Shown here piece after piece: positions 10,543 through 59,789 of a DNA stretch of 64,000 nt (the first letter of the stretch is position 1; each line of letters opens with the position of its first letter). Source of the DNA: Styela clava. Its lineage: Eukaryota. A program made the position numbers and the translations under genes. The stretch spans positions 12,958,001 to 13,022,000 of the forward strand of contig NC_135263.1 of the NCBI RefSeq assembly GCF_964204865.1. Direction: 5' to 3'. The notes beneath the pieces are model-generated. The model was given only the letters and a program-made list of their open reading frames with translations. It did no database searches and was not told the origin of the DNA.

Positions 10543-12010
10543 CACACAAAACTGCAAACGTATTCTATCCTTTTCCTTGCGATGGTGTATTCGTGTGCTT
10601 TTAATGAACGGTTGCTGTAGCAAGAATGAAGATGATTATTGTAGGATGAGTGACTCACGATTCTTGCTACACACCAACACTGCCGTTTCTGGACGATGCC
10701 AAAAATACATTTGTGTTGTTATTAGTGATAGAGGTATTTGGTAAAACACTAAATTACAGGTGAAATTCGAAAATGTACGAATACTAATTAACGAACTTCC
10801 ATTCTATACTCGTAATGAGGTGAATGGAATCATAGGATTTTGAAAATTTTCAATTTGGACTGAACAAAACTTAATTAAATAAAAAGCCTGATTACGTGTT
10901 CACTCATCGATGTGCGTACGTGACTTCGGGTCGACCGTGGGGCGATGAAATATATAATTTTGTTATTAGTGAATATTTTTAATTATCAATATAAACATAC
11001 TAATGGACAATATTGATAATTACCATAATTTACAATCTCCACATTAAACATTTGGATTGGTAAATGATAATTATAATTGATCTGATAATTGATAAGATTA
11101 ACTAACTACAAATGCGACTTCTCTAAAAATGCGTAATATTAATTAGCTATTTATATTTTTTGTGTAATTGTTTATACCACATTCAATGCTCAAATTATAA
11201 AATTTATATTCTTTGTTAAGATTTAGAAATAGCTGAGAAAAGGAAGGAATATGACAATAATCGAACTCACTTATGACATCTAGTGACTAATTTAAGTTTA
11301 ATATGCTGCAAGATTTGTTTCTAAACATCACGTCGACAAGTCTTAAACTTTTCCCTTTGAGTTATATAATATAAAATTGTCTATGCAATTTTATTTTGAC
11401 AATCACAACTAAGTAGAGATACAATATATGCAAATACATTTTCTCATTAAATAGGAACAAACAACAGGCAATATCGAATTGACTATAATGTAATTACCCG
11501 GTGTGATACAATCTTAATTTTCGAAACAAATTTAACAATACTATACAATAATACAATAAACAGAAATATAAAATAAAAAGTTTGTAAAACTATAGAATTC
11601 AAAGGGATATAAGGTTCATTAAGATTCACTAGTTTTTGTCAGTTTTGCAAAACTTTGGAAGCCAGAAATTCATTTTTGCATATAAAATGTTGATTAAATC
11701 AAAACAAAGCATTACATATATTATGCTGTCGTAACAAACTAAATATAATCTAGCTTGCATTGATCAAATCTACAAGAGATATATATTATATATACTAGAA
11801 CAAAATAAGATAGTAAACCTTTACCTATTGTAACCTAGTAAACCAGGAATGTAAGTGATCACCTTCTACGCAATAAACAGTCCTAATTTGAATTGTTAGG
11901 GTAAAAATATTGCACGTTCTGAAAATATCAAGACAATGTAATATAATTTACATTATGTTTCATGAAATGTTTATGACAAATATGTCAATTTGATATTAAC
12001 TGATTTATAA

Positions 12011-15000
12011 TCAAACTCTTTTGAATCCGTAAGCATATGTTTCAGGGAAATCAAACTGATTGTATTTTCCGTTCACAAACTCTTTAAAATGAACGAAACC
12101 TCCATTCTGTTTGTCAAGGTTACCGATACATGGAAATCCTGATCCTGCAATGAAACAACAAGAAATAATTCTTCATTAGATTAAAAACCAAATTTCAAGC
12201 CTACATGAAATTTCCCACCGCTGGTTGGGAATGTGTGGTATCAGGCTTGGATTCTATTTACAATCTTCTATGTTATTCACGGATTTGATTTAGCCAATGT
12301 GCTCATCATAAGAATTGATCAATAGCTTGAACAAAATGACCAACATGTGATTGAACACAAAAATGAAACTAAAAAAATAGAGGTCCATCCTCCCCGACAG
12401 GGTTGTTATATGGTGCAAAGTTTACAGTTTGATATATAAAAAAGCCTACCCATTAACAGCAACTGGAAGACAGTCTCTGAAATATAACTTAGTCCTGCGC
12501 TCAGAGCTTGCGGAGGAGATTGTGAATTTCTCATGATTAAAATTCCATTTTCATTAACAGATATTGTTTGATTTTCCAAATTGTAATAAGAGAAGAATCC
12601 TACGTATTTCTCTGGATTTGGAGCTGGCATGATTTTTTGTTGCATCCTGTAAATAATGAAATATCATTTTATAATTATGCAATTATTCGACGAGTCGAAA
12701 TCACTAATTGTGGGTTTCCTCGCCATAGGCTTGTTTGATTATATCCGTAACATTAGCTAACGAGTACGATATCAATGGTGACGTAACAATTGGACTTTTA
12801 AGACCGTTTTTACTCAGAAATTGTAGTAAACATTAGCTCGTTTTCGTGGTTTTGCGAGCTTTTTTGTTTGCGAAATTTAGGTATAAATCATGTTTATGGA
12901 GTTAGGGGTCGAAGAAACATATATTACATTGACATTGAAATACTTTCGACAGAAAAATAAACCTATGTGCACGCTTAAACTTACTTTCTGAGAGTATCTC
13001 GGAATAGAGGAATAGCTTTATCCAATACAATTCTGGCAGTATCTTCACTTGAAAATCCAGCCCTCAGAATATTAAACGACAATTTCAAATCAGGAATCAT
13101 AGCCATGTCTGACGTGTAACCTTCAAGGGCACCGTTTTTCGATACAACCTGTATGGTTTGAAAATATTAATGTTTTTCTTGATCACTCACGAAAAGTTTG
13201 AAGCAAAAGCCTCTAATTGAACAAATACACAATGAAGGCGTGTTCGCCATTTGTGAAAACCAGTAAAATTTGGAGTGAAATATGGGTCTCATAGAACCTA
13301 GAGAAAATCTGAAAAATACAATAGCCCTCAAACCCTTTCAATCACCAGTACTGTAAATTCAAAATCGATCTATCCGATAGTTTGCCGAGACGAGGAACAA
13401 CCAAAAAATGTATTTAGCAACTTGATCCATACGTCTACTTCGAGTTCAAAATATTCATTTTTGTAGCATTAGTGTTATACGATACTTACCAAATAGTCGT
13501 GTAATTTATTCATTTCCCATGGACTTCCTGTCATATTTACTAGGTAATCATGTCTACATGTTTTTCTAGGACGAAGTATTTCAGTCAAAGTTTCATGTTT
13601 CAGAACTGTTTTTGATGTCTCCATGAATGACATTGATAATTTCGCCAAGTCAGCTACAAATGATAAGATGCATCATGATATATTGTAACATGATATAAAA
13701 AATTCGATCCAAGTTTGGCTATATTAGAAAGCTCCTAATTTTGGACTCAAAGATTCTATGATTCTTCTAAGTATGGAAATATTCGTGTGCAAACAATGTC
13801 AGATTAAGCTGTAGGAAATATTAAATTTTTTTGTTGTAACATTATGTAAAAAATACGAAACATTGAGAATTTTTCACAAATATCTGGTCATGCATTAAAA
13901 ATTGAAATAGACTTTACATCTTTTCCTTATATATACCAACCAATAGTTGAGTAATAATTTCCAGCAGGTGAATACCACAGCAGTTCATATACCGGCGCTT
14001 GTACTCCACTTGGTAAATATCCTGCCGCCATTTTCGCTCTCACGTCCGCTGTGTATGTGAAGCCTGAATAGAAGAATTTCATATTACACAATTGGATCAA
14101 AATATCGAATGAATAATATAGGTCCAAACAAAAAATATTCCATGTAATGCAATGAAAATGCTAGTGTTCACAACAGTTCCGGCAAAGATCTCTGTTAATC
14201 AACACGGTTTCTGGCTTGGTAGACGGTTAAAAATTATGACAATAACCTCCAACTTCAAAAGGCTTGAAATTATTTAAAATAGCTCATAACAACAAAAAAA
14301 CTTCACACATACAAAATCATTAAAATTTTAGAACGAAATGCAAATATTTTGCTCAAGAATTTAGTTTTACTGGTTCACATTTTAAAATTAATTTTGTCAA
14401 AATTATACATACCTGTGTTCGTTAAATCCAATTTATCAGCAATATTCTGTTTCGCCCAATTTTCAAAATTTCCATCAGTTGTGAAATTTCTTGCTAATAT
14501 GTGTCCAAGTAACGCGTAGGCAAGGTTGCTAAAGCAAACACAAAGAGTTGATAACTCGTCTAAAGCTGATATCGATTGAACTAATGTCAAATGTTTATTA
14601 AAGGACTAAAAGCTGCTGAACTTACCTGTAAAAACACGTTGATCGAGGTTCGGCAACCAGAATCTGAGATTGGAGAAGTTGAAGAGCATCTTCTAATTGG
14701 CCATTAAAAAATATTGCCGATCCATTCAGAGGATTGAAAGGCAATGAACTGAAACATAAGATGAATAATGCATCCAATGGATAATAATTAAATGCTAGTA
14801 TAGTTATAGAAATCCGGTAAATACAAAGAGAAACTATTCATATCGATGTACTTTTGGAATAATTGGCTTATTTTTGACATAACACCAAAAGAACCTACAA
14901 TATCACTTATGTTCTCTGTAGAGGCGTCAAACGTTCTAATAAATCTAAATAAATAAGTAATTTAGTTGTTTGATACATGTTACCACCGGTTGATTACGGC

Positions 15001-28847: not shown

Positions 28848-30741
28848 ATGTCTTACCAATACCGAAGCATATCTGTATTGCTCACATTCGGCTTCTTCAG
28901 TTTTTGGATTGCTTCGTGTATAGCTATCGGTGTCGGACCGGTAAGAAAAGATTTAAAATTATTGGTAGAAATCCTAAATGCTATGAATTAACGACATTTA
29001 GTAATAACAGATATCTTGGTTTAGAATTTCTTGATTTTTGAAAATTTTGAGTGGCTACTCCAACGTAGAATAATTCGAACGAATATTCAGTCTAACTCTG
29101 AAATACTGAAGAAAAAAAGCGATTCCTTCTTGAATATAAGTAGTAAATACAAATACAGAATAATGTATGTGATTAATGATACTAATATAGGCCTAAATTC
29201 CGGTCAAAGCTATTCTTTCAACTAGCTAAGTATTGACTTATAGTATATATATCATTAAACAACCTGTCCGTTTTGTAAAAAAAAACACCCATAGATGAAT
29301 TCACGAAGTGTTTGTGAATAGGGCTCTTTACCAGAAATTAACAAGAACTACTACATTCAGGGTTCTCCGTGTGGAATACCATTTGGTTCCAGTCGTTATA
29401 TGGCAAGAGAAGGTCAATTTGGTTGTTATAAATGTGATGCAAATGAATATTGGAATCGGAGAATTAAATCATGTGCGCCTTGTACAGGGTTTCTCACCAA
29501 CACCAGAGCTAACGTTAGATCATCATGCAAAGACAGAAGGTTGGTGCATTGTTATTCTGATTGTGGAAATATTTAATACTTTCAAGGTGTTGCCGGACAA
29601 AATTAATAGAGGCTTAATCAAATGGCGATTGTGATATAATCATTCCTACTCCTAACAGCATTATATAAGACAAAGACTCAATTTCTCATGAAAGACTTGA
29701 AATATAGTTTGTATACCGTTTAGTGTTCTGGTTTATTTATATGCTGGCTTTTCTCTATTGGTGTTTGTTTCGAATCAGTGATTTCTGTCGAGTTGAGGCG
29801 GTTTGATCAAGTTTTGGTGAGATAGAACCTAGTGTCTACGACAGCAATTTTTAAATAGCGTTGTTTTCTGGGCATTTACACAGAATTCCAGTAACCACGA
29901 CAGCAACAACAACAAATCCGACAGCTTCACACGTTTCTAATTCTACTTACTTAGACGAAACAAAAATTTTGATAGCTTCACATGCAAACGCTTCTACACA
30001 AGTGACAAATATAAATGCCTTAAAAAATGATACAAGCACAGTTTTGATGCCAAGAAAGCTCGAAGGAACACAAGGTATTTTAAGACATATATCAGGTAAT
30101 ATTATGCGACTTTCTACAGATATTTTCTTGTATTTATACTTATTCAATGAGACGAGGACAACATTTATAGCTGATAATTAATATGATTTCAAGAAAAAAA
30201 TATACACAATTAAAATAAATAAGAAAAAAATAATAAATAGCATACAAATTTTGACACCTCAAACAAAATACTTGTTATAAATTTGGTTTTATTTATGCAA
30301 ATGAATTTCATTAGTTATGAGTATTGGGGATAAATAATGGATGTTAAGCAAACAAAATTGCCTTTTACATTCCATACTTCCATATATGTATTTAAATGTC
30401 TGTATCAGTATTTCATCTATCGAGTCGTGTATGACCTAACAATAATGAGTGTAAGACCTTCCTTAGCAAATATTTGATATTGTTCATTAGTAAACAATCA
30501 TGTAACACCACTGCTAAAAAAATGCCGTTAAAAAGAAATATAAAATTATCACTCAATGGTAACATTTTTTCAATCAGATAAGATTTCATTACTCAAAGGG
30601 AAAAAACTTAGAAAAAGCAAACGCCGAAATAAAAGAAAACGCACCAAAGGAAAAGCGGAAAAGAAGAAAAAGCTAAACAGAATAAGAAAAAAAAGAAAAG
30701 GAAATAAAAAGAAAAATCTCAAAATAAAGAAAATCTCATAA
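28848..30741 (+). CDS. CRD-family gene A1: secreted protein (signal peptide, one TNFR-like CRD, Thr/Ser-rich stalk, polybasic C-terminal tail); exons 28848-28940, 29361-29539, 29884-30074, 30578-30741; 208 aa
   Basis: GT-AG introns with phases 0,2,1 give one frame: MSYQYRSISVLLTFGFFSFWIASCIAIGVGP / GSPCGIPFGSSRYMAREGQFGCYKCDANEYWNRRIKSCAPCTGFLTNTRANVRSSCKDRR / IPVTTTATTTNPT.. / DKISLLKGKKLRKSKRRNKRKR..KKIS* (31 of 54 residues K/R). No TM segment. Confidence 0.72.
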
Positions 30742-31619
30742 TATGAAAATATAGTCGAATTCATACAATTATTTGTACATTGCAGTGGGAATATTACGTT
30801 TTAGAAACTGTACTTTCTGCATTAAAAACTTGTCATTTTTTTCTTATTGTGCTTTTCAAGATGGCCTATTTTAAAAAACCGGTTGTATTATGTAACATTT
30901 CAAAAATTATTACAATATGTATTGTACAATCGGGCTTGTTATCATACAAAAACTAACACAATTTGCATCCGCCAATATGCATAAACCTAATGTAATTTAT
31001 GGCATTAAATTTAATAAAATAAGTAATCTGGAGGGTTGGAAACACAATAAATATGTCTTCTACGATGTGTCTATACAGCCAGTCGAAATGCTGTATAAAC
31101 AATATATATGTATATTGGAATGGATTGGAGATAATTTTGTTGTACACCGTTTGTATTGTGAATGTTCAACTAACAAACACTTAGTATCCACAGCTTATAT
31201 TTTCAAAACACTTCTACGATTTGTGTGATCTTTATTTCAAGCTGAAATTTTATTTGACAATTGTTCAAGTGACAACGTTATTTACGAAACGTTGAATACA
31301 TGTTTGTTTGTTAAATATCTTTTTCGTGCTGTTTGACGCTCAAGCAACCAGGCAAGGCGAAGCCTACCCAGGTACTCAATTGTATGTATATTAACATTTT
31401 CATTGTTAAATTTTGCCTATTGTTCATAATATATGTCAAAACATAGCAAAAATCAGGAATGACTTTTCTCACTATTGACGTAAAAAGACAGTAAGATAAA
31501 TCCAACAAAAACCAATTTCAACCTGTTGAAACTTGCGTAAACATGCCGGCCGGCTTGCGCAATATCGTGTAACGTGTTTACTAGTTCGTGACTAAAGGTT
31601 TTTTGCTTTAAAATACATG

Positions 31620-31740: not shown

Positions 31741-34209
31741 ATGTTATATAATGTGCGATGTTGTTCGATATTGCTTCTAGCAATTCAGTATGGTGTTTTA
31801 GGATTGATGACAGCAAATTCTTATGTAGTAAGTAACTGAACTATTTTTTTCATATATATTGTAAAAAATTTGAATCGTTTGTTTGATAGGGTTTAACTTA
31901 GGTAAAAACTGATTCTCAATTGTTTACAGGTTTTGACTAACATTACTAACAAACAAAGATTACTTATGGCTCGTGGTATGAGCATTTGAGTGTGGAGTAT
32001 ACAATATACATACACTCATATTCTCCTCTCGTGCTTAGTAAATCGATAAGAAAATGTGGAAATAAATATTACTCATAAACTGGTGATCGGTAGAACTAAA
32101 CATTTACAGACTGTTTCAACTCAGAATATTTTTTTGCATAATTTAACCATTATTGCAAGCCAGCCATTTTAAAATAAGCTATTGAATGTTTTTGACTAAA
32201 TGTGGATTTTATCAATAGAATATCAAAACCTCGATTTGTCACGTACGTTAGATGCAATTTAATTTCGGAATCGTTTTAATTAGATTAATTCTAAATATCC
32301 ATGGTAGTTCGTTTAGTTTGCACAAAAGTGACCAAGCAAGCGATAGTCAATATATTTTTTGTGAACCTTGTAGGGAATGCGATGTTCTTCAAGACAAATT
32401 TACATGTTGAAAGACAGCCAGTTGGTTTGTGACGACTGTGGGGTGAATGAGTATTGGTCAACACGAACAAAAACCTGTTCTTTGTGCACAAGCCCTCGAT
32501 ACACAAACTTAAAGAGGAATATCCGATCCTCTTGCAAAGATCATGTGTGAGTTGCGTTTTTTAGATTTATTAAAATTTTCAGAATATGTTTGAAAAGATG
32601 TACACTATATCGCATTAAAAATCCTATAGTAAATTATATTAAAAAAATATATATATGATTTTCTATAGCAACCCCAATTCGCGTAATATAATTTACTATA
32701 TATACTACATTTGAAAAAAGTGTATTTAATTTATCACCATCTTTCTGTAAGCAGGTATAGGAACTTGAGTTTACCAAGATAAAACAACTAAGCAACTGCT
32801 TATGTATACTTGGGTAGTGCAAACGGAATAAGTTGAGTGAAAATAACATTGAACAAAACTAATTGAACATATCAATTCAATATTCAGAAAGTCTAAAATC
32901 GTTCCAACATCTTTTGATCAGATATCGACGCAAGAAACTGAAAATTCGTACGTGGTAAGTAATTGGACAATAATGCTATAGAGTCTGAGTCCAGATCTAT
33001 TAGATTTGAGATGCTTGAAGAATAATAATTAGAAACTATAGTGTCCTATCTAGCTTCAGCCATAACCATCTTGTTTAAAGTCTCACGTAAGCCGCCATGT
33101 AGAACCCACTGTTTCTGTAACAAAGATGGATGGACCTATATTTAGTTATAGGACCTTACTTGCGCGGGTATTTGAAATACTATTCTATAGAAGTCAACTA
33201 TTCTAGCATTACTATAATTATATTGATGTTCGTATAGAAAGTTTAGCTGATGGTGTCAGCGGTGAAAGTTCATCAATTTCACGTCTTTAATATCACAGGG
33301 AACACCGTGTGCCCCACGACGACTTTACATGATAAAAAATAACCAATTGGTTTGCGACAACTGTGGAGTCAATGAATACTGGTCACGACAAACAAAAACC
33401 TGTTCCTTGTGCACAAGCCCTCGATATACAAACTTAATGAGAAATATCCGATCATCTTGCAAAGACCATATGTGAGTCGTTTTTATTTTAAGAATTTTTT
33501 CAAATCTTAGTTTGAATAGGATTATGTTTCGTTGAGAAATTGCTCAAATCAAATCGATTTTCAGAAAACCAAAAACTGTTCCAATGCCTACTTACACGAA
33601 GATCAGTACAACTCAAGGACCTAATGATTCGACCGCAATGAACCCTGTTTTTTCCAGTGAGTTATTCATTTATCGATGTACATAATATATTTACTTTCCG
33701 ATAAAAAGTATCTGTTCTAATAGTCTTTATCAAATCACAACATAAAAATAGACGTGAAGAATAATGAGATAAATTCTTAAACGATTTGCTAATGAGAGTA
33801 CACTAAATATATTTGAAATAAATCAAGGTATTCATAGCGTATCTATCTAGATTAATTGAAATCTAAATTTTACTCTTTAGCCTCAACACGGACACTTACG
33901 AGAAGTACAGATAACAGAAATCCAACTACAGGATATCGGCCCACAACTACTCAAGTGTTCACAAAACCAATAAACATTGTTACAGATACAGTTTTAAACC
34001 CAACTCGAGAGACAAACATAGTGACTGAAAAGACTGTTAATTTGACAATATTCTACTTAAGCATGGGGGTTTCATTTTTAGTTGTTATGGCAATATCCTT
34101 GATAGCTATTTTTTTCATCAAGCTTTGCATATCAAAACAACGACAAAACAATCCAAGACGAGTAAGTCAGAGTGTACCTCGCGTTACTTTGAACACCACG
34201 TCTATATGA
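31741..34209 (+). CDS. CRD-family gene A2: type I membrane receptor-like protein with two CRDs; exons 31741-31827, 32374-32546, 32888-32954, 33299-33471, 33565-33656, 33881-34209 (alternative donor after 34161); ~306 aa
   Basis: Signal MLYNVRCCSILLLAIQYGVLG; CRD1 CDDCGVNEYWSTRTKTCSLCTSPRYTNLKRNIRSSCKDH; CRD2 CDNCGVNEYWSRQTKTCSLCTSPRYTNLMRNIRSSCKDH; Thr-rich stalk; TM IFYLSMGVSFLVVMAISLIAIFFI; short basic tail. Phases 0,2,0,2,1 are all consistent. Confidence 0.8.
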
Positions 34210-35389
34210 TAAAACTTTAAGAATAGAAATATTACACCAATCACACAATGTTTATGGCTGCCACTTTGAGAGTTTGATAAAACCATTTTATCAGGTTTAA
34301 AATCATATCAATTGACCGATAACTGGTTTGAAGTTTAACGCCCGAGTCATCTTCGTGTAATTATATGTTTTCAAGCTTTAACGTCCGAACTCAACAATTT
34401 GCGTATATATCCTTTTTTTAAGCATTAACGCCCAAATTCTTCGAATTAGTGTCTTATTATAACTTATAACACCGAGCCCGTTGGATCATTTTGTTGCTGG
34501 TAATGTGATTGTATGGGGGGCAATGGACTCTGATGTCCCCAAAAGGTCATATCGTTGCCTCCCAGTCATGCACCAAAGCATCTGTCTATTTTTTGTTTAT
34601 ATGTGCTTGCATATATAGTGTGTTTTGTGGTTTGACGAATGGAATAAACTCTCTCTCTCTCACTATGTGAATGTTATAACGTTTATAATATGGGACTACA
34701 TGAGTTGCCTGTATTATTAAAAGTGATGGCAATTTTGAGTGTCTTGTCTTCAAAAGATAGTAATGTGGAAAGATCGCTCTGAAGTGAAATCAAATTCAAG
34801 ATTTTAATTATATATACGTAAGGTTAAAGGACGACGGTTATTTGCGACAGCAATTTTGATGACTTGTGTGGTACAAATGTACATAAAGCGCACTTACCAT
34901 TTAATATAAACCTCTGATAAGTCAAAATTAAGAGTTTCGAACGCTTTGATAATCATGAGCAAATTCTCAAGATGTCATTCCCGTCCCTTATCTGACTACC
35001 TCATTCAAATATTTCGTTATAGTGGCGTATAATGCCCGACAAAATGTACAGTCGTTCAAAACGCGCAATCTCGCGCGCCGGTGCGTATAAAAAATCTGAT
35101 TTTCACAATCCATTCGCGTTGCAACTCGTCGCGTAATGTTGCGTCACTTACGCCGCCGTACCCACGGTCTTCCTCTAGAACTTTCGGATTTCGCAACAAC
35201 CGTGTATAAAGGCGTAATGTTCTCCAGCACGCGCTCAATATTGCTTCGTATCTTTCCACGTTTGTATTGTGCCGGCTGTCACGTAAAAATTCAAGTAATT
35301 ATTTCTATTTGATTTATTTTGGTCATAATCATGATATTAGAATATTTTAAAGAAAATATTATTCGAATTTAGTGAAGGTATGCGAGTTA

Positions 35390-35874
35390 TGTAGAATTGA
35401 ACGCCTGCGCAACGCGATATTATATAGTTAGCGAGTTGCTTGTTGAAAAGAAACTTCACTGCTTCAAGAAACGTCCGCAGAAATCCATGCCAGGTGGCAT
35501 TAGTTAAAAACAGAGGTGCGCAACATTATTTGTCGGTGGGCCATATAACCAACTTCTGACATCTAGCTGGGCGCACAAAGAAATTAGTTTTTCCATGTAC
35601 ACAAGGAATTAAAAAATTCCCACAATGCAAAATTTTATTTATTTGATATTTTAGTGGGACACTTGGATTTTCGAGTTTTTACATACTTTGTTAACATCAG
35701 CTTCGACAGCAGTTAGAATTTTATACTTGATGTGTGACAAGGGCTGCACTAAATGGCTTGGCCGCGTTGTGACTCGTGGACTGCCTGTAAAGACCCCTGA
35801 TCTCTCCTGCGTACAATAAACGTGTACTGAAGTCGGGTAGTAAACATCATCATTTTGGACACCAGATTATCACA
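35390..35874 (+). mobile_element. Putative solo LTR (second copy at 45248-45732)
   Basis: TGT...ACA ends, an internal TATA-like motif and AATAAA; homology to the ~53965 paralogous flank resumes right after the ACA end. The TSD is imperfect (gtta/gttt). Confidence 0.3.
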
Positions 35875-36772
35875 GTTTCGACTGTATTTCAATTATTAAG
35901 TTAGCGTTCGGGAGAATAGGCTTTACGCTATACAGCCTCATGTTGCGCCACGGCTTCGTCCTTTGTATTGAAAATACAGTCACCTCTCAAAACCAAGTCT
36001 ATTTGAATATAGGAGCAAATTTAATTCAGGAAATAATCCAAAACTTTCATACATTAAGATAAGAAAGACAATGTAGTAGTCTGTAGCAACATACAGGCAG
36101 TGAAGTAGTATATGTATGTATAGAGGAAGGACATGAAATTAGAAGATCAGAAGTAACTTTTTTTAAATGACGAAAAATTATTTTTATAATTATTTCCTAA
36201 CTTTTTCATATGAAATTTGCCAAAGAAAAAACAATTAGTTAGTTAGTGATATTAGAATTGGAACATAGAATAGATATTAGAATTGATATTAGAACTAAAC
36301 AAAAATATCAAATTAAGCGACTTCTTACAGATGTTTTTCTTGCTTCTTTATCTAGTTATTGTGATGAACCCAACACCTATATCCGATAATTTATATGGTT
36401 TCAGACAAATAGTCATACAACTAAAATTTATCAATAAAAAAAATGATAATAACCATACAAATTTTGACACTTCAACTAACATACTTTGGTTTCATTAGGT
36501 CAAGTGAATCTTATTGAGTAAGAGTACAGGGGATATATGATAGATGTTAAGCAAACAAAATTGCCATTTAAATTCCATATATGTATTTAAATGTCTGTAT
36601 CAGTATTTTATCTTTCAAGTCGTGTATGACTTAACAATAATGAGTGTAAGACCCTCTTTTAGCAAATATTTGATAATGTTCATTAGGAAACAATCATGTA
36701 ACACCGCCGCTAAAAAATGCCGTTAAAAAGGAATATAAAAGTATCACTCAATGGTAACATTTTTTCAATCAC

Positions 36773-36939
36773 ATTCGATTTCATTACTCAAAAGAGAAAA
36801 ACGTAGAAAAGGCAAACGCCGAAATAAAAGAAAACGGTTGCGCACCAAAGAAAAAGCGGAAAAGAAGCAAAAACTCAACAGAATAAGAAAAAGAAATAAA
36901 AAAAGAAAAACTCAAGATAAAGAAAAACTCCTAATATGA
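36773..36939 (+). pseudogene. Orphan copy of the A1 polybasic terminal exon (acceptor AG changed to AC)
   Basis: Homologous to 30578-30741 inside a duplicate of 30230-31560. No phase-compatible upstream exon in this unit; reads caatcAC instead of caatcAG. Confidence 0.65.
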
Positions 36940-37076
36940 AAATATAGGCTAATTAATACAATTATTTGTACATTGCAGTGGGGATATTAAGTTTTAGAAA
37001 CTGTAGCTACTTTCTGCATTAAAAAGTTGTCATTTTTTTCTTATATATTGTGTTTTTTAAGATGGCCTATTTAAAA

Positions 37077-39860
37077 ACAAGAGAGCAATGATCATATATG
37101 GAAATATATGGACACGCAGAACAATTCCCCAAAAATCATATGCGGTGACCAACGACTAACATACCGGCGGTGACTTACCAGTACCTGTATCGGGGTACCG
37201 TGACGGTACAGGGACTGTCATAGATATTTTAGGTCCTGTGACAATTGAAACATCAGTTGAAATATCTCGTGATATGAGTCAATTATGTACCGTATTATCG
37301 GATCAGGTACCGAACCACAGTCAAACATTTCACATAAAAACGTTACTAAATAACATGCGTCAACTTAACACCAGCCGAATCGAGGTACAATTTTTGGTAC
37401 AGTGACTGTCATAGCCGTTTAGGGCTGATGAACAATTCGACTACACGGACAACTCACCAGGCCTAGGGTGGTGTAGCCCGTCTGCGGACAATTTCATTCA
37501 AACCGCTATAAAACAAAAACCAATATATCTAACCCGTTAATTTTTTCACCGTGGGTGCATTGGCGGCATTTATTCTACACGCTAAACCTCGTATTAACTT
37601 TCTACGACAAAGGGTTAAAGCTATACAAATCCCCAAAGTACGGCACTCGAAAGACGTATTTGCGACCGAACGACCAGTGTGCGACCACGGATTTCAAGCC
37701 TTGATCATCGTTTCTGCTGCGTCGAGACTATCGCATACGCAGCCATACAGCAATCAAACAGACAAAACACGGTGGTCGCAAATTGGTTGACAAAGATATT
37801 ATCGACGTATTAGGATAGGATTTACATATTTATCCCGGGGGAGAGAAGTAACTATCAAAGATGGTTAACAAAACTCTACCCACCTGCCAAGTTTCATCTT
37901 TTTATCTCTTATATTTGTATGGATTTTCAAGCTTTTGACAGCTACGAGTTAGTTCAGTGTCACCGCTTTCTGACCGTCATATATTTCAAGAACACGGTTA
38001 TTTCGAACAAAACTCGTTAAATTATAAACAAAGCACCACATCACAGCAATCAAACAGACGAAAACACGGTGGTCGCAAATTGGTTGACAAAGATATTATC
38101 GACGTATCGGAAATGCACACCCCCTATTCCCCCTCCTTCATATGTAGAAACGCGAAACCTTCAAATAAGGTTAAAAGAAACACAACTCTACCCACCTGCC
38201 AAGTTTCATCTTTTTATTTCTCATATTTGTATGGATTTTCAAGCTTTTGACAGCTACGAGTTAGTTCAGTGTCACCGCGCTGTGTTACGGTACCAGAACT
38301 TCTCTATCTTTAGAAGGTCCTGTCTTGTGACAGCGTGAATTGAAATTGCAAGATGGTCCGTTGGACACAAAATGGCGTCCTATATCCGAGAACGTTTAGT
38401 GACGTCATAGCAAACAAAAACAAATCTTACAGAGCTAACAGAAATATTTGAAATAAATAAAAGTAATAGCCTTCTGGAGAAAAATTTCATCTTCAACCAC
38501 TGAAAATTTCAAAGCAATTAGTCCAGTAATCAAAGAGAAAAGCGACTTTTTAAAAACGTGTCAAAGAACAAGAATAAGAACAAGAACAAGAGAGCTATGC
38601 TCAAATATATGGACACGTAGAGTCACATAATTTTGATGACGTCATAGCAAAAAAAAAAGTAATAGCCTTCTGGAGAAAATTTTTATCTTTAACCACTAAA
38701 AATTTCAAAGCAATTGGTCCAGTATTCGAAGAGAAAAGCGACTTTTTAAAAACGTGTCAAGCGGTACTGAGTTAGCAGTCAGGCAGCATCTTACCTGTAC
38801 ACTGTAGGCCATATACGGTAATTGATCACAGAACAGTTGTTCCCTTGCAAATTTTATGTTGTTTACACTTTAGGACAGATAATTGATCACAGAACAATTC
38901 TTCCCTTTCAAATTTTATGTTGTTTCCAGTAGACTCTCATCAAAATAAACAAATATAGTAGGCTACAAGTGCTACAACGCTTGCATTACTGCACTGGTAG
39001 GACCGTGAAAGAATAAGTTACGGTAATTTCATTGTGGTAAGACACCGGTACCGGCACCAGTACCAGTATCGTACTTACGTACTGAGCTACCAGTACCGGT
39101 TAGCAGTCAGCCAGCATCTTACCTGTACACTGTAGGCCATATACGGTAATTGATCACAGAACAGTTGTTCCCTTGCAAATTTTATGTTGTTTACACTTTA
39201 GGACAGATAATTGATCACAGAACAATTCTTCCCTTTTAAATTTTATGTTGTTTTCAGTAGACTCTCATCAAAATAAACAAATATAGTAGGCTACAAGTGT
39301 TTCATTGTGGTAAGACACCGGTACCGGCACCAGTACCAGTATCGTACTTACGTACTGAGCTACCAGTACCGGTACCGAACCTGTAGGTCTGATATTCCGT
39401 TCCGCATACGATAGGCTATAAAACTTGCATTGCAGCATTAGTAATACCGCGGAAGGAATAAGTCAATTTCACTGCGTTACGGTACCGGTACCTACAGTAG
39501 CTGTAGTACTGAGCAAGACAATCGATCGCGAAACCGCTTGAAATAAGTGTAAAACAGTGTTCCCATGAGTAAAAATAAATACCGCGAAATTTTGTATGAA
39601 ATATCATATCTCATAGGATTCATATAAAATTTAAGAATAAACAAAAGTAATAGCCTTCTAGCGAAAAAATTAATCTTTAACCACTGAAAATTTCAAAGCA
39701 ATTGGTCCAGTATTCGAAGAGAAAAGCGACTTTTTAAAAACGTGTCAAAGAACAAGAACAAGAACAACAACATAATATTGAAACGATCGTTATGTCCACT
39801 ACGTGTCCAACAACAACAACATAATATTGAAACGATCGTTATGTCCACTACGTGTCCAAT
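37077..39860 (-). mobile_element. Helentron-type non-autonomous element (HINE) with internal ~296-bp tandem repeat; hosts a nested HINE
   Basis: Absent from the paralogous empty site near 30875. Subterminal IRs tggacacg(c/t)ag ... ctacgtgtcca, an (AAC/AAG)n microsatellite, insertion into an A run without a TSD, and repeat units at ~37748 and ~38044. Confidence 0.75.
38587..39810 (-). mobile_element. Nested HINE inserted into the (AAC)n microsatellite of the outer element
   Basis: caagagagctatgctc (gagc-tat-gctc hairpin)..tggacacgtag ... ctacgtgtccaa. Missing from the unit-2 copy, where the flanks join cleanly. Internal ~328-bp tandem repeat (38772, 39100). Confidence 0.8.
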
Positions 39861-41494
39861 AACAGGTGTATTGGGTAACATCTCAAAAGTTATCACATTA
39901 TGTATTGTACAATCAGGCTTGTTACCATACAGAAACTAACACAATTTGCATCCGCCAGTATGCATAAACCTAATGTAATTTATAGCATTGAATTTATCAA
40001 AATAAGTAATCTGGAGGTTTTGAACTACAATAAAGTCGTCTACAATGTGTCTATACAGGCAGACAACATGCCATATAAACAATATATATATTTGAATGAA
40101 TTAAACGGAATTTTGCTGTACACCGTTATATAGCTTGAGGGAGGTTTATATTCATTGGATTTCTAAAATTTTAACTTGGGAATGTTCAATTAACAAACAC
40201 TTAGTATCCTCAGCTTGTATTTTCAATACACTTCTACGATTTGTGTGCGATTTAAATAAGCTGAAATTATATTTGACAATTGCTCAAGTGACAACTTTTA
40301 TTTACGAAACGTCGAATACATGTTTTTCTTGAATATCTCGGACGAGGCTAAGCCTACACAGATACCGTAATGTATCAATCTTTACATTTTCATTGTTAAA
40401 CTTTTTTATTATTCATATTATATGTCAAAACAAGTAAAAAAAAATGCGTTGGAAAAGGACTCTTCTCACTATTGACGTACGAAGACAGTAACCCAAATCC
40501 GATTCCAGCCTGTTGAAACCGCCGGCTTGTGCAATGTAGCGCAACGTGATAACAGCACGAGTCACAGTGCGGGCTTCTGGAACTTTCGGAAAGTTTCACA
40601 CCGTCCCGTAGCTTTCAACTTTGGGTTGCGCTGGGTGTCAGGTAAAAATTCAGTATTTACATTCAGAGTATTTATAATTTAATTACTTTCATAGATTGAG
40701 ATATAATGAAAAGGGTAGTAGTCTGCAGCAACGTACAGGCAGTGACATAGTATATAAATGTGGACATAGAAGGACAAAAAATTATAATATCAGAAGTAAC
40801 TTTTTTTCTAATGGGATAATTTCAAAAGGACAAAAAATTATATTTTCTATTTTTACCATATGAAATTTGCCAAAGAAACGGTTATTTCGATGTAGTGTAA
40901 GTTCAAGTTGTCTGTTCTGTATAGTTCCCAAATACCTAAAATAAAATGTAGCCTATACATAGACAGCAAAGATGTATGAAATGTATATTTGGTCGGTATC
41001 TATATTGATATTAGAATTAGTTTAGAAATAACATAAATTTAGAATATAGAACACACACAAAATATTCCCAATTATATTGTTGTGCTATATATATATATAT
41101 TTTTTAGAGTCATAAAAATAGGAAATGATGCTAGGTAGCAATCAAGATCAAAGTATCCTTTATGTTATTCGACATATTATAGGTAACAAATATGTCTGGG
41201 TCAGCGATGACATGTTACTTCTTTGAGTTTTTTTTTCTCTAAATGAAGCAAAAATTTTTATAGAAATGAAAAAATTAGATAAAATAGGGATATATTTTAT
41301 GTAAATAGAAACTTTCCTTTTTTGTAAAATACGTAAAATTATAAAATAAAGAAAAGTGATATCACACATGAACCAGGAAATTGCTAACCAGAAACCGAAT
41401 TACACTTCATAATATTTTGTTTTATGTAGATCTTTCTCATGTCACCAGCAAACCCGACATCATAATATCCGTTTCCACACCAGAGGCGAGGAGA

Positions 41495-41508
41495 GGGGCG
41501 TGGCCAAT
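41495..41508 (+). promoter_or_regulatory. GC-box (Sp/KLF) plus CCAAT composite GGGGCGTGGCCAAT, conserved upstream of genes B, C (50086-50099) and D (55183-55196)
   Basis: Identical 14-mer in the diverged D upstream region. A promoter role is inferred. Confidence 0.4.
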
Positions 41509-41756
41509 TACGATTTAATAAAATTATCATTTCAACTTTTTAAATGAACGCTTACGTTAAAAAAAGGTATAATAATTCTTGGATTCGATGTTTCTTAGAC
41601 AAATTAGCATAGGCTACCTATAAATCGATATTTTTTCACTCTTTTTGTTGTTTTCAAGGTTAGGGTGGTAGGTTTTTCAAATTTAGAATTGAAAATGAAC
41701 AGAACAAAATTGATTGTTAGGGCTTCATCCTATAAATTTCAGTCTACCTTGTTTAT

Positions 41757-42088
41757 AACCTTTAACCTTTTTTTTCTAATTTATTGAATATTGCTCAAGA
41801 AAATCAGTAGTGAGTTAGAAACCCAGAAAACACCGTTTGTGCGCGTAGGATTATGCATGACAACGTTGGTCCCAAGCAGAAGCAAATTTTCTCAAACTAA
41901 AATCGCGTGACAACAATGGGCCACGAGGCGGCGATGGGGGAGGAGAAATGCGCCTCGTATTTCGCATTTGCTCGAACAACGGTTATTGAACGAGACGTTA
42001 GTAGAATTTCTCACGCGTTTGAGCAAAGAGTTGACAATTTTTAGGATGGGTATAAAAAGTCGATTTGGACCATCGAAGAGAAAGGGTT
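41757..42088. mobile_element. ~330-bp MITE-like insertion upstream of B (copy at 50348-50679 upstream of C), absent upstream of D
   Basis: D reads taccttgttcaatggaaaatccgaccc without it; ends aacc(c)ttt...aaagggtt. Confidence 0.45.
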
Positions 42089-42313
42089 TGGGAAATCCGA
42101 CCCTGCTCTTGCATCTAGTGTTCTCGCCTCAACTGCCCATTACCAAAACTAAATTTGATCACGATGCTCTTGTGTAGCAAATGTGAAAAGAAAATAATTT
42201 CATTTTTGTGTAACATCTTTATGATCTGTCAACATTTTTATCTCATAAGCACTGTTCTTATTTAGATAGTCTTATATTTAACCCCTCTACTCCAATTCAC
42301 ATATTTTTGCACC

Positions 42314-43594
42314 ATGGCGTTTAATATATGGACTGAATTGATATTTCTTGCTTCTATCAATATGCTCTGCGATGCATCATCTTTGAAAATTAAGGTGAAA
42401 TATTTTATATTTTTAACCACTAAACATAGTCTTAATAACAAAGCAACTGAAAATGTTGCAGATTTTATTCCAAGTTTTATTCCACGGGTATAAACTTCGC
42501 TACATGGCAAGGTGGTTAAAGTCGAAAAAGCTGTAGTTGAACTGAAAGTATATATCAATCGGCATTCAAACTTGCTCTGCTCAAACCTTCCATGCGAAAA
42601 ACACAGCTGGTTTTCGAACTTCAGTAAGCAGTAACATAAAGCAATTAAATCCTATTGAACAATAACATATTTTATTATAGATCGGCGACCCTTGCGGAAT
42701 TCCTCATGGATCTGGAAGATGGATGAACAAAAATAACACATTTGGGTGTGATCAGTGTGATGCAGGCGAATATTGGGATTCGTATAATAACACATGTTCG
42801 CCGTGCACTGGTTCACTGACCAGCTGCAAACCAAATGTATTATCAAGTTCTTGCAGTCACCATTGGAGGTGAGTATAGTTTTCGATTAGTTTATGTTTCC
42901 ATAATCATCGATTACTTTACCAATACACGCGTGTACGATACACTCGTAATAATGCAGCAGAGCTGACATAAAAAATTGGCTTCTTTGACACCAAGCCCGG
43001 TTCACGAGTCTTAATCCCAAGCATTTAACTGAATAACCGAAATACTCAAATAAGTGCGCTTTCGTACATAAACCCCTTTATTGGGAGTAATGGTAACTGT
43101 AGCAGTATTTTTAGCTTTCATTTGGACAGTAACATTATCGGAACCAAAAAACAAACTATTTTTCTCAACGTTATAGGGATTGTGAGACCACGTCACCCAG
43201 CACAACTACAAGAAATGTGTCAACTGATAAACCAGTGATCAATACTTCGTTGAATATTCACAGCACGGCGTCAGTTGAACATATCACCAGTCCAACATCC
43301 ACCAAAGAAATAACCAATGCGAATATTAGGCCAATTACTTCGGCCTCGTTTCAGTCGTCTTTTACTTCAAGCACAACTGTGAAAACCAGTGTTGAACACA
43401 GCGAAAAAACACATTTAGAGCCATGGGTTTACATTATTATAGTACTGGGGTTAATATTTCTCATTGTCAGTATTGCTATTTTAATATTTAGAGTATATAA
43501 ACATCGCACATCGCAGCAAAGTAGGCCTCCAAATGATACACTAGACAACCTGACTGATTCTGGCGAAAAGTTGCTCGAAAACAGCCAATCTTGA
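42314..43594 (+). CDS. CRD-family gene B: type I membrane receptor-like protein with one 8-Cys CRD; exons 42314-42394 (tentative), 42681-42868, 43177-43594; 228 aa
   Basis: CRD IGDPCGIPHGSGRWMNKNNTFGCDQCDAGEYWDSYNNTCSPCTGSLTSCKPNVLSSSCSHHWRDC; Ser/Thr stalk; TM WVYIIIVLGLIFLIVSIAILIF; tail ending DSGEKLLENSQS*. Exon 1 (gcaccATGG context, MAFNIWTELIFLASINMLCDA, phase 0) is less certain. Confidence 0.75.
42914..43131. other. 218-bp indel in intron 2 of gene B relative to gene C
   Basis: The intron is 308 bp in B and 90 bp in C. Weak terminal inverted similarity; it could be a MITE insertion in B or a deletion in C. Confidence 0.6.
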
Positions 43595-43758
43595 AAGCCC
43601 GATATCTGATTTCAAAAATATTACTCGTGTTTATCATTGCTAATGAGAGTACACTAAATATATTTGAAATAAATCAAAGTATTGAATTAACTCTAAGTTT
43701 CATATATATTCCTAGCGTATCTATCTAAATTAATTGAAATATGAATTTTACTCTTTAG

Positions 43759-44038
43759 CCTCAACACAGACACTTACGAGAAGTACAGATAACAGAAATT
43801 CAACTACAGGATATCGGCCCACAACTACTCAAGTGTTCACAAAACCAATAAACATTCTTACAGATACAGCTTTAAACCCAACTCGAGAGACAAACATAGT
43901 GACTGAAAAGACCTTTAATTTGACAATATTCCACTTAAGCATGGGGGTTTCATTTTTAGTTGTTATGGCAATATCCTTGATAGCTATTTTTTCATCAAGC
44001 TTTGCATATCAAAACAACGACAAAACAATCCAAGACGA
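43759..44038 (+). pseudogene. Orphan duplicate of the A2 stalk/TM exon with a 1-bp frameshift
   Basis: The duplication breakpoint lies in the preceding intron. The T7 run at ~34109 is T6 here (~43987), shifting the frame at the end of the TM segment. Confidence 0.8.
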
Positions 44039-46637
44039 GTAAGTCAGAGTGTACTTCGCGTTACTTTGAACACCACGTCTATATGATAAAACTTTAAGAA
44101 TAGAAATATTACACCTATCACACAATGTTTATGGCTGCCACTTTGAGAGTTTGATAAAACCATTTTATCAGATTTAAAATCATATCAATTGACCGATAAC
44201 TGGTTTGAAGTTTAACGCCCGAGTCATCTTCGTGTAATTATATGTTTTCAAGCTTTAACGTCCGAACTCAACAATTTGCGTATATATCCTTTTTTTAAGC
44301 ATTAACGCCCAAATTCTTCGAATTAGTGTCTTATTATAACTTATAACACCGAGCCCGTTGGATCATTTTATTGCTGGTAATGTGATTGTATGGGGGGCAA
44401 CAGACTCTGATGTCCCCAAAAGGTCATGCACCAAAGCATCTGTCTATTTATTGTTTATATGCGTTTGCTATATATATGGTGTGTTTTGTGGTTTGACGAA
44501 TGCAATAAACTCTCTCTCTTGCTATGTGAATGTTATAACGTTTATAATATGGGACTACATGAGTTGCCTGTATTATTAAAAGTGATAGCAATTTTGAGTG
44601 CCTTGTCTTCAAAAGGTAGTAATGTGGAAAGATCGCTATGAAGTGAAATTAAATTCAAGATTTTAATTATATATACGTAAGGTTAAAGGACGACGGTTAT
44701 TTGCGACAGCAATTTTGATGACTTGTGTGGTACAAATGTACATAAAGCGCACTTACCATTTAATATAAACCTCTGATAAGTCAAAATTAAGAGTTTCGAA
44801 CGCTTTGATAATCATGAGCAAATTCTCATGATGTCATTCCCGTCCCTTATCTGACTACCTCATTCAAATATTTCGTTATGGTGGCGTATAATGCCCGACA
44901 AAATGTACAGTCGTTCAAAACGCGCAATCTCGCGCGCCGGTGCGTATAAAAAATCTGATTTTCACAATCCATTCGCGTTGCAACTCGTCGCGTAATGTTG
45001 CGTCACTTACGCCGCCGTACCCACGGTCTTTCTCTAGAACTTTCGGATTTCGCAACAACCGTGTATAAAGGCGTAATGTTCTCCAGCACGCGCTCAATAT
45101 TGCTTCGTATCTTTCCACGTTTGTATTGTGCCGGCTGTCACGTAAAAATTCAAGTAATTATTTCTATTTGATTTATTTTGGTCATAATCATGATATTAGA
45201 ATATTTTAGAGAAATATTATTCGAATTTAGTGAAGGTATGCGAGTTATGTAGAATTGAACGCCTGCGCAACGCGATATTATATAGTTAGCGAGTTGCTTG
45301 TTGAAAAGAAACTTCACTGCTTCAAGAAACGTCCGCAGAAATCCATGCCAGGTGGCATTAGTTAAAAACAGAGGTGCGCAACATTATTTGTCGGTGGGCC
45401 ATATAACCAACTTCTGACATCTAGCTGGGCGCACAAAGAAATTAGTTTTTCCATGTACACAAGGAATTAAAAAATTCCCACAATGCAAAATTTTATTTAT
45501 TTGATATTTTAGTGGGACACTTGGATTTTCGAGTTTTTACATAGTTTGTTAACATCAGCTTCGACAGCAGTAAGAATTTTATACTTGATGTGTGACAAGG
45601 GCTGCACTAAATGGCTTGGCCGCGTTGTGACTCGTGGACTGCCTGTAAAGACCCCTGATCTCTCCTGCGTACAATAAACGTGTACTGAAGTCGGGTAGTA
45701 AACACCATCATTTTGGACACCAGATTATCACAGTTTCGACTGTATTTCAATTATTAAGTTAGCGTTCGGGAGAATAGGCTTTACGCTATACAGCCTCATG
45801 TTGCGCCACGGCTTCGTCCTTTGTATTGAAAATACAGTCGTCTCTCAAAACCAAGTCTATTTGAATATAGGAGCAAATTTAATTCAGGAAATAATCCAAA
45901 ACTTTCATACATTAAGATAAGAAAGACAATGTAGTAGTCTGTAGCAACATACAGGCAGTGAAGTAGTATATGTATGTATAGAGGAAGGACATGAAATTAG
46001 AAGATCAGAAGTAACTTTTTTTAAATGACGAAAAATTATTTTTATAATTATTTCCTAACTTTTTCATATGAAATTTGCCAAAAAAAAAACAATTAGTTAG
46101 TTAGTGATATTAGAATTGGAACATAGAATAGATATTAGATATTAGAATTGATATTAGAACTAAACAAAAATATCAAATTAAGCGACTTCTTACAGATGTT
46201 TTTCTTGCTTCTTTATCTAGTTATTGTGATGAACCCAACACCTATATCCGATAATTTATATGGTTTCAGACAAATAGTCATACAACTAAAATTTATCAAT
46301 AAAAAAAATGATAATAACCATACAAATTTTGACACTTCAACTAACATACTTTGGTTTCATTAAGTCAAGTGAATCTTATTGAGTAAGAGTACAGGGGATA
46401 TATGATAGATGTTAAGCAAACAAAATTGCCATTTAAATTCCATATATGTATTTAAATGTCTGTATCAGTATTTTATCTTTCAAGTCGTGTATGACTTAAC
46501 AATAATGAGTGTAAGGCCCTCTTTTAGCAAATATTTGATAATGTTCATTAGGAAACAATCATGTAACACCGCCGCTAAAAAATGCCGTTAAAAAGGAATA
46601 TAAAAGTATCACTCAATGGTAACATTTTTTCAATCAG

Positions 46638-46774
46638 ATTCGATTTCATTACTCAAAAGAGAAAAACGTAGAAAAGGCAAACGCCGAAATAAAAGAAAAC
46701 GGTTGCGCACCAAAGAAAAAGCGGAAAAGAAGCAAAAACTGAACAGAATAAGAAAAAGAAAAAACTCAAGATAA
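46638..46774 (+). pseudogene. Second orphan copy of the A1 polybasic exon (acceptor intact, 3' deletion)
   Basis: caatcAG|ATTCGATTTCATTACTC..., encoding K/R-rich sequence to TAA at 46772-46774. No matching upstream exon. Confidence 0.6.
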
Positions 46775-46930
46775 AGAAAAACTCATAATATGAAAATATA
46801 GGCTAATTAATACAATTATTTGTACATTGCAGTGGGGATATTAAGTTTTAGAAACTGTAGCTACTTTCTGCATTAAAAAGTTGTCATTTTTTTCTTATAT
46901 ATTGTGTTTTTTAAGATGGCCTATTTAAAA

Positions 46931-48482
46931 ACAAGAGAGCAATGATCAAATATATGGACACGCAGAACAATTCCCCAAAAATCATATGCGGTGACCAACG
47001 ACTAACATACCGGCGGTGACTTACCAGTACCTGTATCAGGGTACCGTGACGGTACATGGACTGTCATAGATATTTTAGGTCCTGTGACAATTGAAACATC
47101 AGTTGAAATATCTCGTGATATGAGTCAATTATGTACCGTATTATCGGATCAGGTACCGAACCACAGTCAAACATTTCACATAAAAACGTTACTAAATAAC
47201 ATGCGTCAACTTAACACCAGCCGAATCGAGGTACAATTTTTGGTACAGTGACTGTCATAGCCGTTTAGGGCTGATGAACAATTCGACTACACGGACAACT
47301 CACCAGGCCTAGGGTGGTGTAGCCCGTCTGCGGACAATTTCATTCAAACCGCTATAAAACAAAAACCAATATATCTAACCCGTTAATTTTTTCACCGTGG
47401 GTGCATTGGCGGCATTTATTCTACACGCTAAACCTCGTATTAACTTTCTACGACAAAGGGTTAAAGCTATACAAATCCCCAAAGTACGGCACTCGAAAGA
47501 CGTATTTGCGACCGAACGACCAGTGCGCGACCACGGATTTCAAGCCTTGATCATCGTTTCTGCTGCGTCGAGACTATCGCATACGCAGCCATACAGCAAT
47601 CAAACAGACAAAACACGGTGGTCGCAAATTGGTTGACAAAGATATTATCGACGTATTAGGATAGGATTTACATATTTATCCCGGGGGAGAGAAGTAACTA
47701 TCAAAGATGGTTAACAAAACTCTACCCACCTGCCAAGTTTCATCTTTTTATCTCTTATATTTGTATGGATTTTCAAGCTTTTGACAGCTACGAGTTAGTT
47801 CAGTGTCACCGCTTTCTGACCGTCATATATTTCAAGAACACGGTTATTTCGAACAAAACTCGTTAAATTATGAACAAAGCACCACATCACAGCAATCAAA
47901 CAGACGAAAACACGGTGGTCGCAAATTGGTTGACAAAGATATTATCGACGTATCGGAAATGCACACCCCCTATTCCCCCTCCTTCAAATGTAGAAACGCG
48001 AAACCTTCAAATAAGGTTAAAAGAAACACAACTCTACCCACCTGCCAAGTTTCATCTTTTTATTTCTCATATTTGTATGGATTTTCAAGCTTTTGACAGC
48101 TACGAGTTAGTTCAGTGTCACCGCGCTGTGTTACGGTACCAGAACTTCTCTATCTTTAGAAGGTCCTGTCTTGTGACAGCGTGAATTGAAATTGCAAGAT
48201 GGTCCGTTGGACACAAAATGGCGTCCCATATATGAGAACGTTTAGTGACGTCATAGCAAACAAAAACAAATCTTACAGAGCTAACAGAAATATTTGAAAT
48301 AAATAAAAGTAATAGCCTTCTGGAGAAAAATTTCATCTTCAACCACTGAAAATTTCAAAGCAATTAGTCCAGTAATCAAAGAGAAAAGCGACTTTTTAAA
48401 AACGTGTCAAAGAACAAGAATAAGAACAAGAACAACAACAACATAATATTGAAACGATCGTTATGTCCACTACGTGTCCAAT
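46931..48482 (-). mobile_element. HINE, unit-2 copy without the nested insertion
   Basis: Same termini and internal repeats as 37077-39860. Confidence 0.75.
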
Positions 48483-59737: not shown

Positions 59738-59789
59738 ATCTGAACTATTCAACTTCTTCCGACGTCTTCCGATCGAAATATCCGACAAA

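Follow-up and report, generated by a model that had tools for sequence, protein, structure and literature searches.

Does an A-rich open reading frame lying behind a cysteine-rich domain gene of the ascidian Styela clava encode a real protein tail and, if so, what would a protein with such a tail do? The question was raised by a 64,000-nucleotide stretch of contig NC_135263.1 (the window), in which a first-pass annotation had joined a signal peptide, a TNF receptor (TNFR)-type cysteine-rich domain (CRD), a mucin stalk and a strongly basic tail into one protein. We find that this gene, gene A, belongs to a tandem family built from a signal peptide, a Cys domain, a mucin stalk and an anchor, in which it alone combines a basic tail with the lack of a membrane helix.

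Gene A lies on the plus strand. Coding exon 1 (28848..28940) supplies a signal-peptide-like N-terminus of 31 codons and ends in a phase-0 donor. Exon 2 (29361..29539; phase 0 to 2) carries a six-cysteine domain with cysteines at residues 4, 22, 25, 38, 41 and 56 and a BCMA/A1-like hairpin. Exon 3 (29884..30095; phase 2 to 1) encodes a Ser/Thr-rich stalk and has alternative phase-1 donors after 30074 (AAG/GTATTT) and after 30095 (CAG/GTAATA), either of which keeps the frame. Ser and Thr make up 20 of 63 stalk residues with the former donor or 21 of 70 with the latter, and there are three N-glycosylation sequons. The tail-exon acceptor (30553..30577) consists of a T-run followed by CAG at 30575-30577, and exon 4 (30578..30741) encodes the polybasic tail and the stop. 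GT and AG are present at all exon ends. When joined through the 30074 donor, the exons form a single frame of 208 codons whose sole stop is terminal, so that the A-rich frame, which had been proposed as an exon behind an acceptor at 30577 in the phase left by the stalk, stands as a genuine tail exon candidate. The acceptor has 11 pyrimidines at positions -22 to -4, and ten acceptors in the cluster range from 9 to 13; by pyrimidine score, two other YAGs of the interval beat it and five equal it. Two candidate poly(A) signals (AATAAA at 31013 and 31046; 31013..31051) follow the stop by ~270-310 nt and are assigned tentatively, since AATAAA is frequent in this DNA. Upstream, an acceptor-like TTTCAG 18 nt 5' of the gene A ATG (window 28805-28847) suggests an untranslated first exon further 5'.

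The predicted protein has seven cysteines in total, six of them inside the one domain. In a hydropathy scan with 19-residue windows, the only strong peak is N-terminal (2.03) and the best later value is 0.65; gene A is therefore predicted to lack a transmembrane helix. We infer that the signal peptide is cleaved and the product secreted.

Gene A corresponds to S. clava LOC120340352 (XP_039264527.1), annotated as 'uncharacterized' with no function assigned; the gene is thus already annotated, but unnamed. A single-sequence search with the Cys-domain exon returned this protein as its one match (1/1 candidates). The RefSeq entry is a computed model that independently predicts the layout proposed by the first-pass annotation, with signal, Cys domain, mucin stalk and basic tail and no membrane anchor. 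Identity to it is 30/31 residues for exon 1 and 100% over the 59 residues of exon 2. The RefSeq junction fits the donor at 30095, 21 nt past 30074; the donor at 30074, which had been favored earlier, is a valid in-frame GT, but it is not the one that RefSeq implies. Using the 30095 donor, the window protein agrees with RefSeq at 211 of 215 aligned residues. RefSeq gives 257 residues against 215 in the window, and its stalk is longer by 38 (a 36-residue repeat unit plus 2). The two tails differ by one substitution, and their last residues are read in different frames. The window's tail ending is probably the older state, because both genomic tail copies described below share its spacing there. 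A full-text search with five gene and protein identifiers of the cluster, with most subscription journals outside its cover, found no paper, and broader literature searches returned nothing on the gene A family by title or start of abstract.

Lys and Arg account for 31 of the 54 tail residues (57%, as had been stated) against 2 acidic residues, giving a net charge of +29. The other two frames of the exon contain 3 and 4 stops and 21-22 K/R. None of 5000 mononucleotide shuffles reached 31 K/R, and 36 of 5000 dinucleotide shuffles did, nine of which were also open. Shuffle means were 20 and 25 K/R (25 for dinucleotides); A-richness therefore accounts for most, but not all, of the tail charge. 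Composition would supply about 20-25 of the 31 basic residues because short A/G tandem repeats lie in the 3' half of the exon. The tail contains one XBBBXXBX pattern and two R-x-K/R-R convertase-type sites, one near its start and one in its second half, and had no Pfam family and no Atlas match. Given its charge of +29, the tail very likely binds polyanions.

Seven related Cys-domain exons occur in the window (29361, 32374, 33299, 42681, 51268, 56081 and 63671), and gene A is the first gene of the array. Its paralogues are all on the plus strand. Gene B (LOC120340354; 31741..34161) encodes a signal, Cys domains at 32374-32546 and 33299-33471, a stalk and a phase-1 transmembrane exon from 33881. 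Gene C (LOC144431979; 42314..43594) encodes a signal, a Cys domain (42681-42868), a stalk with a transmembrane helix and a cytoplasmic tail of ~34 residues, and C' (LOC120340353; 50901..51963) is its recent duplicate. Gene D (LOC144431907; 56081..58515) encodes a Cys domain, a stalk with a transmembrane helix and a tail of ~15 residues, while gene E (LOC120340355; 62952..63821) has a signal exon and a four-cysteine domain exon, its remainder falling outside the window. In 9/12 family proteins there is a transmembrane window (KD 2.4-3.5) with 3-40 residues behind it; the three without one are gene A and two older models that end before or within the helix. The last 50 residues contain 31 K/R in gene A and 3-9 in the other 11 family proteins, so the basic tail is particular to gene A.

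Two very recent segmental duplications (33786-38589 / 43637-48435, 97%; 39626-42919 / 48289-51506, 96%) carried the gene B helix exon, a relic of the tail, and gene C. In gene B, a short linker exon joins the two Cys domains (window 31741-33690). The last exon of the current gene B RefSeq model apparently derives from the duplicate of the helix exon, translated in a different frame, and is probably an annotation artefact. An older model of this gene (XP_039264529.1) ends after the stalk, which would give a soluble two-domain form, and an older LOC120340353 model has a broken helix; soluble variants may thus be recurrent in the family. Cys-domain pN/pS was 0.27 for B1/B2 and for C/D, and 0.46-0.57 for gene A against these; as judged from these ratios, the comparisons show paralogous Cys domains under purifying selection. 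Between paralogues D and E lies a fragmented LINE-type retroelement on the plus strand (59744-62004; RVT_1, E 2.1e-18).

Profile searches kept 9/189 and 11/1725 candidates, every one either an S. clava model or one of two unnamed proteins from transcript assemblies. When 1.84 billion representatives were searched exhaustively with the profile, 17 matches were obtained: seven were from S. clava, and two (P0012 and P0018, the unnamed transcript-assembly proteins) matched the whole domain once. The other 8/17, multi-repeat Cys-rich proteins, were treated as generic and left out. P0018 has the signal-domain-stalk-helix layout of the family. As no other named matches were obtained, the family is apparently restricted to ascidians. 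A tree of 13 domains resolved only the split of B+E from the rest and placed the unnamed proteins on long branches; we therefore claim no order of events.

Copies of the tail occur twice more in the window. A broken copy of gene A intron 3, the tail and the 3' flank (36312..37077, plus) has an acceptor changed to CAC and a later frameshift. A second copy of intron 3 and the tail (46177..46931, plus) retains an intact CAG acceptor and the exon at 46638, with a frame shift near the end and an earlier stop. Neither includes gene A exons 1-3. The tail is 87-90% identical to the two copies and the adjacent intron 92%, and the sole indel in the first 37 codons is 6 nt long and in frame. At 11 changes, pN/pS of the tail against the copies was 0.72, showing no sign of constraint in what is a weak test, as the copies are broken and the changes few. 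A ~2.8 kb insertion with internal direct repeats lies in the 3' flank of the first copy (37080-39858); it includes a 49-nt tandem repeat (39759-39864), and part of it recurs near 9486-9682.

In both copies, the region that corresponds to the beginning of intron 3 of gene A holds an acceptor, followed by an ATG, by 11 hydrophobic codons and by a phase-1 GT that is weak; the ATG and donor are absent from intron 3 itself. In the 46k copy, these elements would define a candidate gene for a small secreted basic peptide of 67 residues, 25 of them K/R (46196-46262 + 46638-46775, plus), whose counterpart in the first copy (36331-36397 and 36773 onward, plus) has lost its acceptor (CAC). A hydrophobicity filter was passed by 5/2389 window ATGs, of which two are these copies and one is a known signal exon; the filter was chosen after the site had been seen, and genes A, B and C have signal exons that fail it. 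T-rich DNA also gives a hydrophobic reading in several frames. The signal and basic peptide frame is thus a lead only and may reflect chance in T-rich intron DNA. We entertain, as a long shot, a bolder history: an undescribed ascidian single-domain TNFR family with a new module arrangement would have expanded in tandem, and one member would have turned independently into a matrix-tethered decoy of the OPG/DcR3 kind when it captured exon 2 of a small secreted cationic-peptide gene next to it, the free gene surviving at 46196-46262 + 46638. We also asked whether a hydrophobic stretch behind the stalk donors is a decayed paralogue transmembrane helix and found no support: for gene A, 256-908 of 1000 shuffles equalled the protein scores, for the copy 360-455 of 1000 did so, and nucleotide scores were equalled by 9-100 of 100.

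Elsewhere in the window, two tandem multi-exon genes on the minus strand (11901-17004 and 19600-25259), with exons 77-90% identical, encode an N-terminal hydrophobic anchor and a beta-lactamase-like domain (PF00144, E 8.8e-10, in one exon). Exon-like frames at 4009-8208 on the plus strand, running from a signal-like Cys-containing stretch (4009-4239) to a helix and basic tail (7876-8208), had no Pfam match and suggest another unannotated membrane protein. An ATG followed by a strongly hydrophobic run at 52679-52745 (plus) is a possible signal exon of an unassigned gene.

Whether the gene A domain is a TNFR CRD, as had been proposed, was examined by sequence and fold. Four Cys, one Tyr and one Thr are invariant in the 13 domain sequences. 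Pfam, PDB and fold searches gave no significant match to the gene A domain. Its best Pfam match was BCMA-Tall_bind at 17.1 bits, below the cut-off of 27, a match found in 3/13 members; TNFR_c6 gave no Pfam match. Among PDB sequences, the family profile matched BCMA best (E 0.005-0.009), with matches spanning residues 24-48 only. All 13 domains have the A1-like Cys-x-Tyr/Phe-x-Cys hairpin spacing, and the model places strands at 29-32 and 37-40, although such a hairpin is also found in non-TNFR repeats. TNFR CRDs are described as consisting of two modules, with BCMA-type receptors binding through a DxL-type tip (PMC8024323), and CXXCXXC or CXXCXXXC is reported as common in invertebrate TNFRs (bioRxiv 10.1101/2024.07.27.603686). 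CxxCxxC, CxxCxxxC, a C2 module and a DxL tip were each found in 0/13 domains.

A first fold from 7 sequences (pLDDT 54.9) had no VIA-align match. A second, from 13 sequences (pLDDT 77.5, pTM 0.58), showed two hairpins and a short C-terminal element and gave 24 VIA-align rows at Z 2.0-3.6. Sixteen were TNFR-superfamily chains and six were class C GPCR cysteine-rich domains, the latter providing the top two rows; EphB2 and meckelin also aligned. Foldseek returned a similar mixture with a best E of 0.29. In a low-confidence model, 18 residues forming a hairpin could be superposed on BCMA and Grindelwald to within 0.5-0.9 A (BCMA at 0.5 A, with an E-value that is not significant), and DcR3 appeared at E 6-8 with the weaker model and E 0.99 with the better one. 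Atlas features were ephrin-receptor-like/GCC2-GCC3 repeats (<=0.84), and Atlas structure rows mixed TNFRs with ephrin-receptor-like repeats at TM 0.51-0.59. As the fold matches are mixed and sub-threshold and TNFR signatures are absent, we place the domain in a broad growth-factor-receptor-like cysteine-rich group. TNFR identity of the gene A domain is only suggested, and at best the domain works like a small TNFR ectodomain.

A death domain was found in none of the paralogues, at most 40 residues follow the helix in the nine membrane members, and four TRAF consensus patterns matched 0/12 family proteins. Because TRAF motifs are absent and so few residues follow the helix, there is no clear sign that the paralogues signal, and the decoy role proposed for gene A lacks support to the same extent, although the membrane paralogues next door could share its ligand. 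Heparan sulfate is likewise only a possible tether. Polyanion binding is very likely from charge, but one study of S. clava found neither dermatan sulfate nor a heparin-like polymer in the flesh, and it did find GAG-like and sulfated-galactan-like polysaccharides in the tunic (PMC8747265). The partner glycan need not be heparan sulfate.

Our tentative preference, held at slightly less than an even chance, is that gene A encodes a secreted, polyanion-tethered family member that traps or presents the ligand of the membrane paralogues, with a TNF-family ligand as the best guess. Its origin would lie in a swap of anchors: paralogues are held by a transmembrane helix, and the gene A stalk would instead be spliced from a phase-1 donor to the polybasic exon. 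By charge, the tail would grip sulfated polysaccharides, either heparan- or dermatan-like GAGs or sulfated glycans of the tunic, and so keep the protein on cell surfaces or in the matrix, while the glycosylated stalk would hold the Cys domain clear of the tethering surface. The domain would bind the ligand class of the membrane paralogues, possibly a TNF-family trimer through its BCMA-like hairpin, making the protein a local trap or depot for that ligand. Cleavage at the convertase-type sites near the tail start could free a soluble form. Potential ligands and few named receptors are on record for tunicates: 10 and 13 TNF-superfamily ligand genes are reported in two Styela species (PMC12843592), and three TNF receptors are named in Ciona (PMC10923776).

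Three other explanations were weighed against this ligand trap. The family may have nothing to do with TNFRs and instead comprise sialomucin-like proteins of the cell surface or matrix that bear a cysteine cap and act in adhesion or recognition. Gene A would then have no cytokine ligand and would be glued to the matrix, its tail binding sulfated glycans or the surfaces of microbes. That would agree with the lack of TNFR signatures beyond the hairpin in all 13 domains, with the equal fold-comparison scores of GPCR cysteine-rich domains, EphB2 and meckelin, with the ephrin-receptor-like/GCC2-GCC3 Atlas features and with the short, TRAF motif-free cytoplasmic tails of the paralogues. A stalk that is 36+2 residues longer in RefSeq than in the window is also what would be expected of mucins. 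The best Pfam match of paralogue C is the sialomucin MGC-24 (E 1.3e-4, below the cut-off), but it covers the stalk and helix only and is probably compositional. BCMA remains the top sequence match in both Pfam and PDB, and the layout of a single domain, stalk and helix is shared by small TNFRs (PMC8024323). On balance we consider a non-TNFR family unlikely, though it deserves to be taken seriously.

The remaining explanations concern the tail itself. The exon could be used rarely or never, with transcripts reading through to a stop at 30181 to give a soluble, tail-less protein or splicing in frame to the gene B exon at 33881, and the basic frame would then be a by-product of A-rich DNA. Both alternatives are open (189 residues for read-through; 263 or 270 for the splice), and AATAAA at 30214 and 30232 could terminate a read-through transcript. 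The short A/G repeats, the dinucleotide-shuffle average of 25 K/R and the lack of visible constraint against the two broken copies fit this as well, and protein-set searches returned only the older gene A model, though models of its neighbors on a 20-Mb contig came up. Against it, RefSeq chose the 30578 exon independently, the sole open tail frame is in the phase left by the stalk, and a frame both open and equally basic arose in just 9/5000 dinucleotide shuffles. Moreover, the copies have a single indel in their first 37 codons, which at 6 nt preserves the frame, and a splice to 33881 must skip four gene B exons. We judge an unused tail improbable, more so than a non-TNFR family. Least probable of the three, and in our view quite remote, is that convertases free the tail from a carrier as a cationic antimicrobial peptide, a function that the first-pass annotation had also offered. 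Polycations are able to damage microbes, the tail has a net charge of +29 with R-x-K/R-R sites near its start and in its second half, and the copy at 46196-46800 holds a possible free signal and basic peptide frame. Conversely, only 9/53 tail residues are hydrophobic and none is aromatic, the helical moment is equalled or exceeded in 1473/2000 shuffles, neither Pfam nor Atlas matched the tail, and sea water weakens killing by charge alone.

If the domain does bind TNF-family ligands, the cluster would add a single-domain receptor family to the tunicates, in which many ligand genes and few receptors have been described, and the sister group of vertebrates would have, in gene A, a decoy that came to be tethered to glycans by convergence. 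If it is not a TNFR module, gene A would still encode a secreted protein particular to this lineage, in which a mucin stalk is followed by a basic retention tail, a familiar design. In either case, the cluster offers a clean test of anchor swapping, as ectodomains of near-identical layout end in a helix in the paralogues and in a polybasic exon in gene A.

Among known systems, BCMA/TNFRSF17, TACI, Fn14 and Drosophila Grindelwald resemble the family in having one small Cys domain and a stalk and, for the paralogues, a helix and short tail as well. The family differs from these single-CRD receptors in an added N-terminal two-Cys hairpin, in lacking a C2-type module and DxL tip, and in paralogues free of TRAF motifs. 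Osteoprotegerin (OPG) and DcR3 have four tandem CRDs, to which OPG adds death-domain-like modules, and their heparan sulfate site is C-terminal. Gene A is like them in being predicted to be secreted without a membrane anchor; OPG is a soluble decoy (PMC4648319) that binds heparan sulfate (PMC10235622), and DcR3 a secreted decoy that cross-links HSPG (PMC5086583). Gene A is unlike both in its one atypical domain, mucin stalk and far more basic, unstructured tail. Styelin/clavanin-type cationic antimicrobial peptides form an amphipathic helix with substantial hydrophobic and aromatic content, from which the gene A tail departs in all three respects. PDGF and VEGF retention exons provide further basic retention tails. 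Comparable in the tail itself are exon 4 of CXCL12gamma and the basic region of R-spondins, which share with gene A a separately encoded, K/R-rich C-terminal exon and a proposed glycan tether: the basic last exon of CXCL12gamma immobilises the chemokine on heparan sulfate (PMC7802348), and the R-spondin TSP/basic region, preceded by two furin-like repeats and a thrombospondin type 1 domain, binds heparin and HSPGs (PMC7239654). Their N-terminal domains are unrelated to that of gene A, in which we found no furin-like pair, thrombospondin repeat, WxxW or such Pfam match. Orthology of gene A to OPG, DcR3 or R-spondin was rejected; one six-Cys domain stands against four CRDs or against furin-like repeats with TSP. 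Basic retention tails on ligand-binding domains are a known design; the variation that is new is their use as a swapped anchor within a tandem family particular to one lineage.
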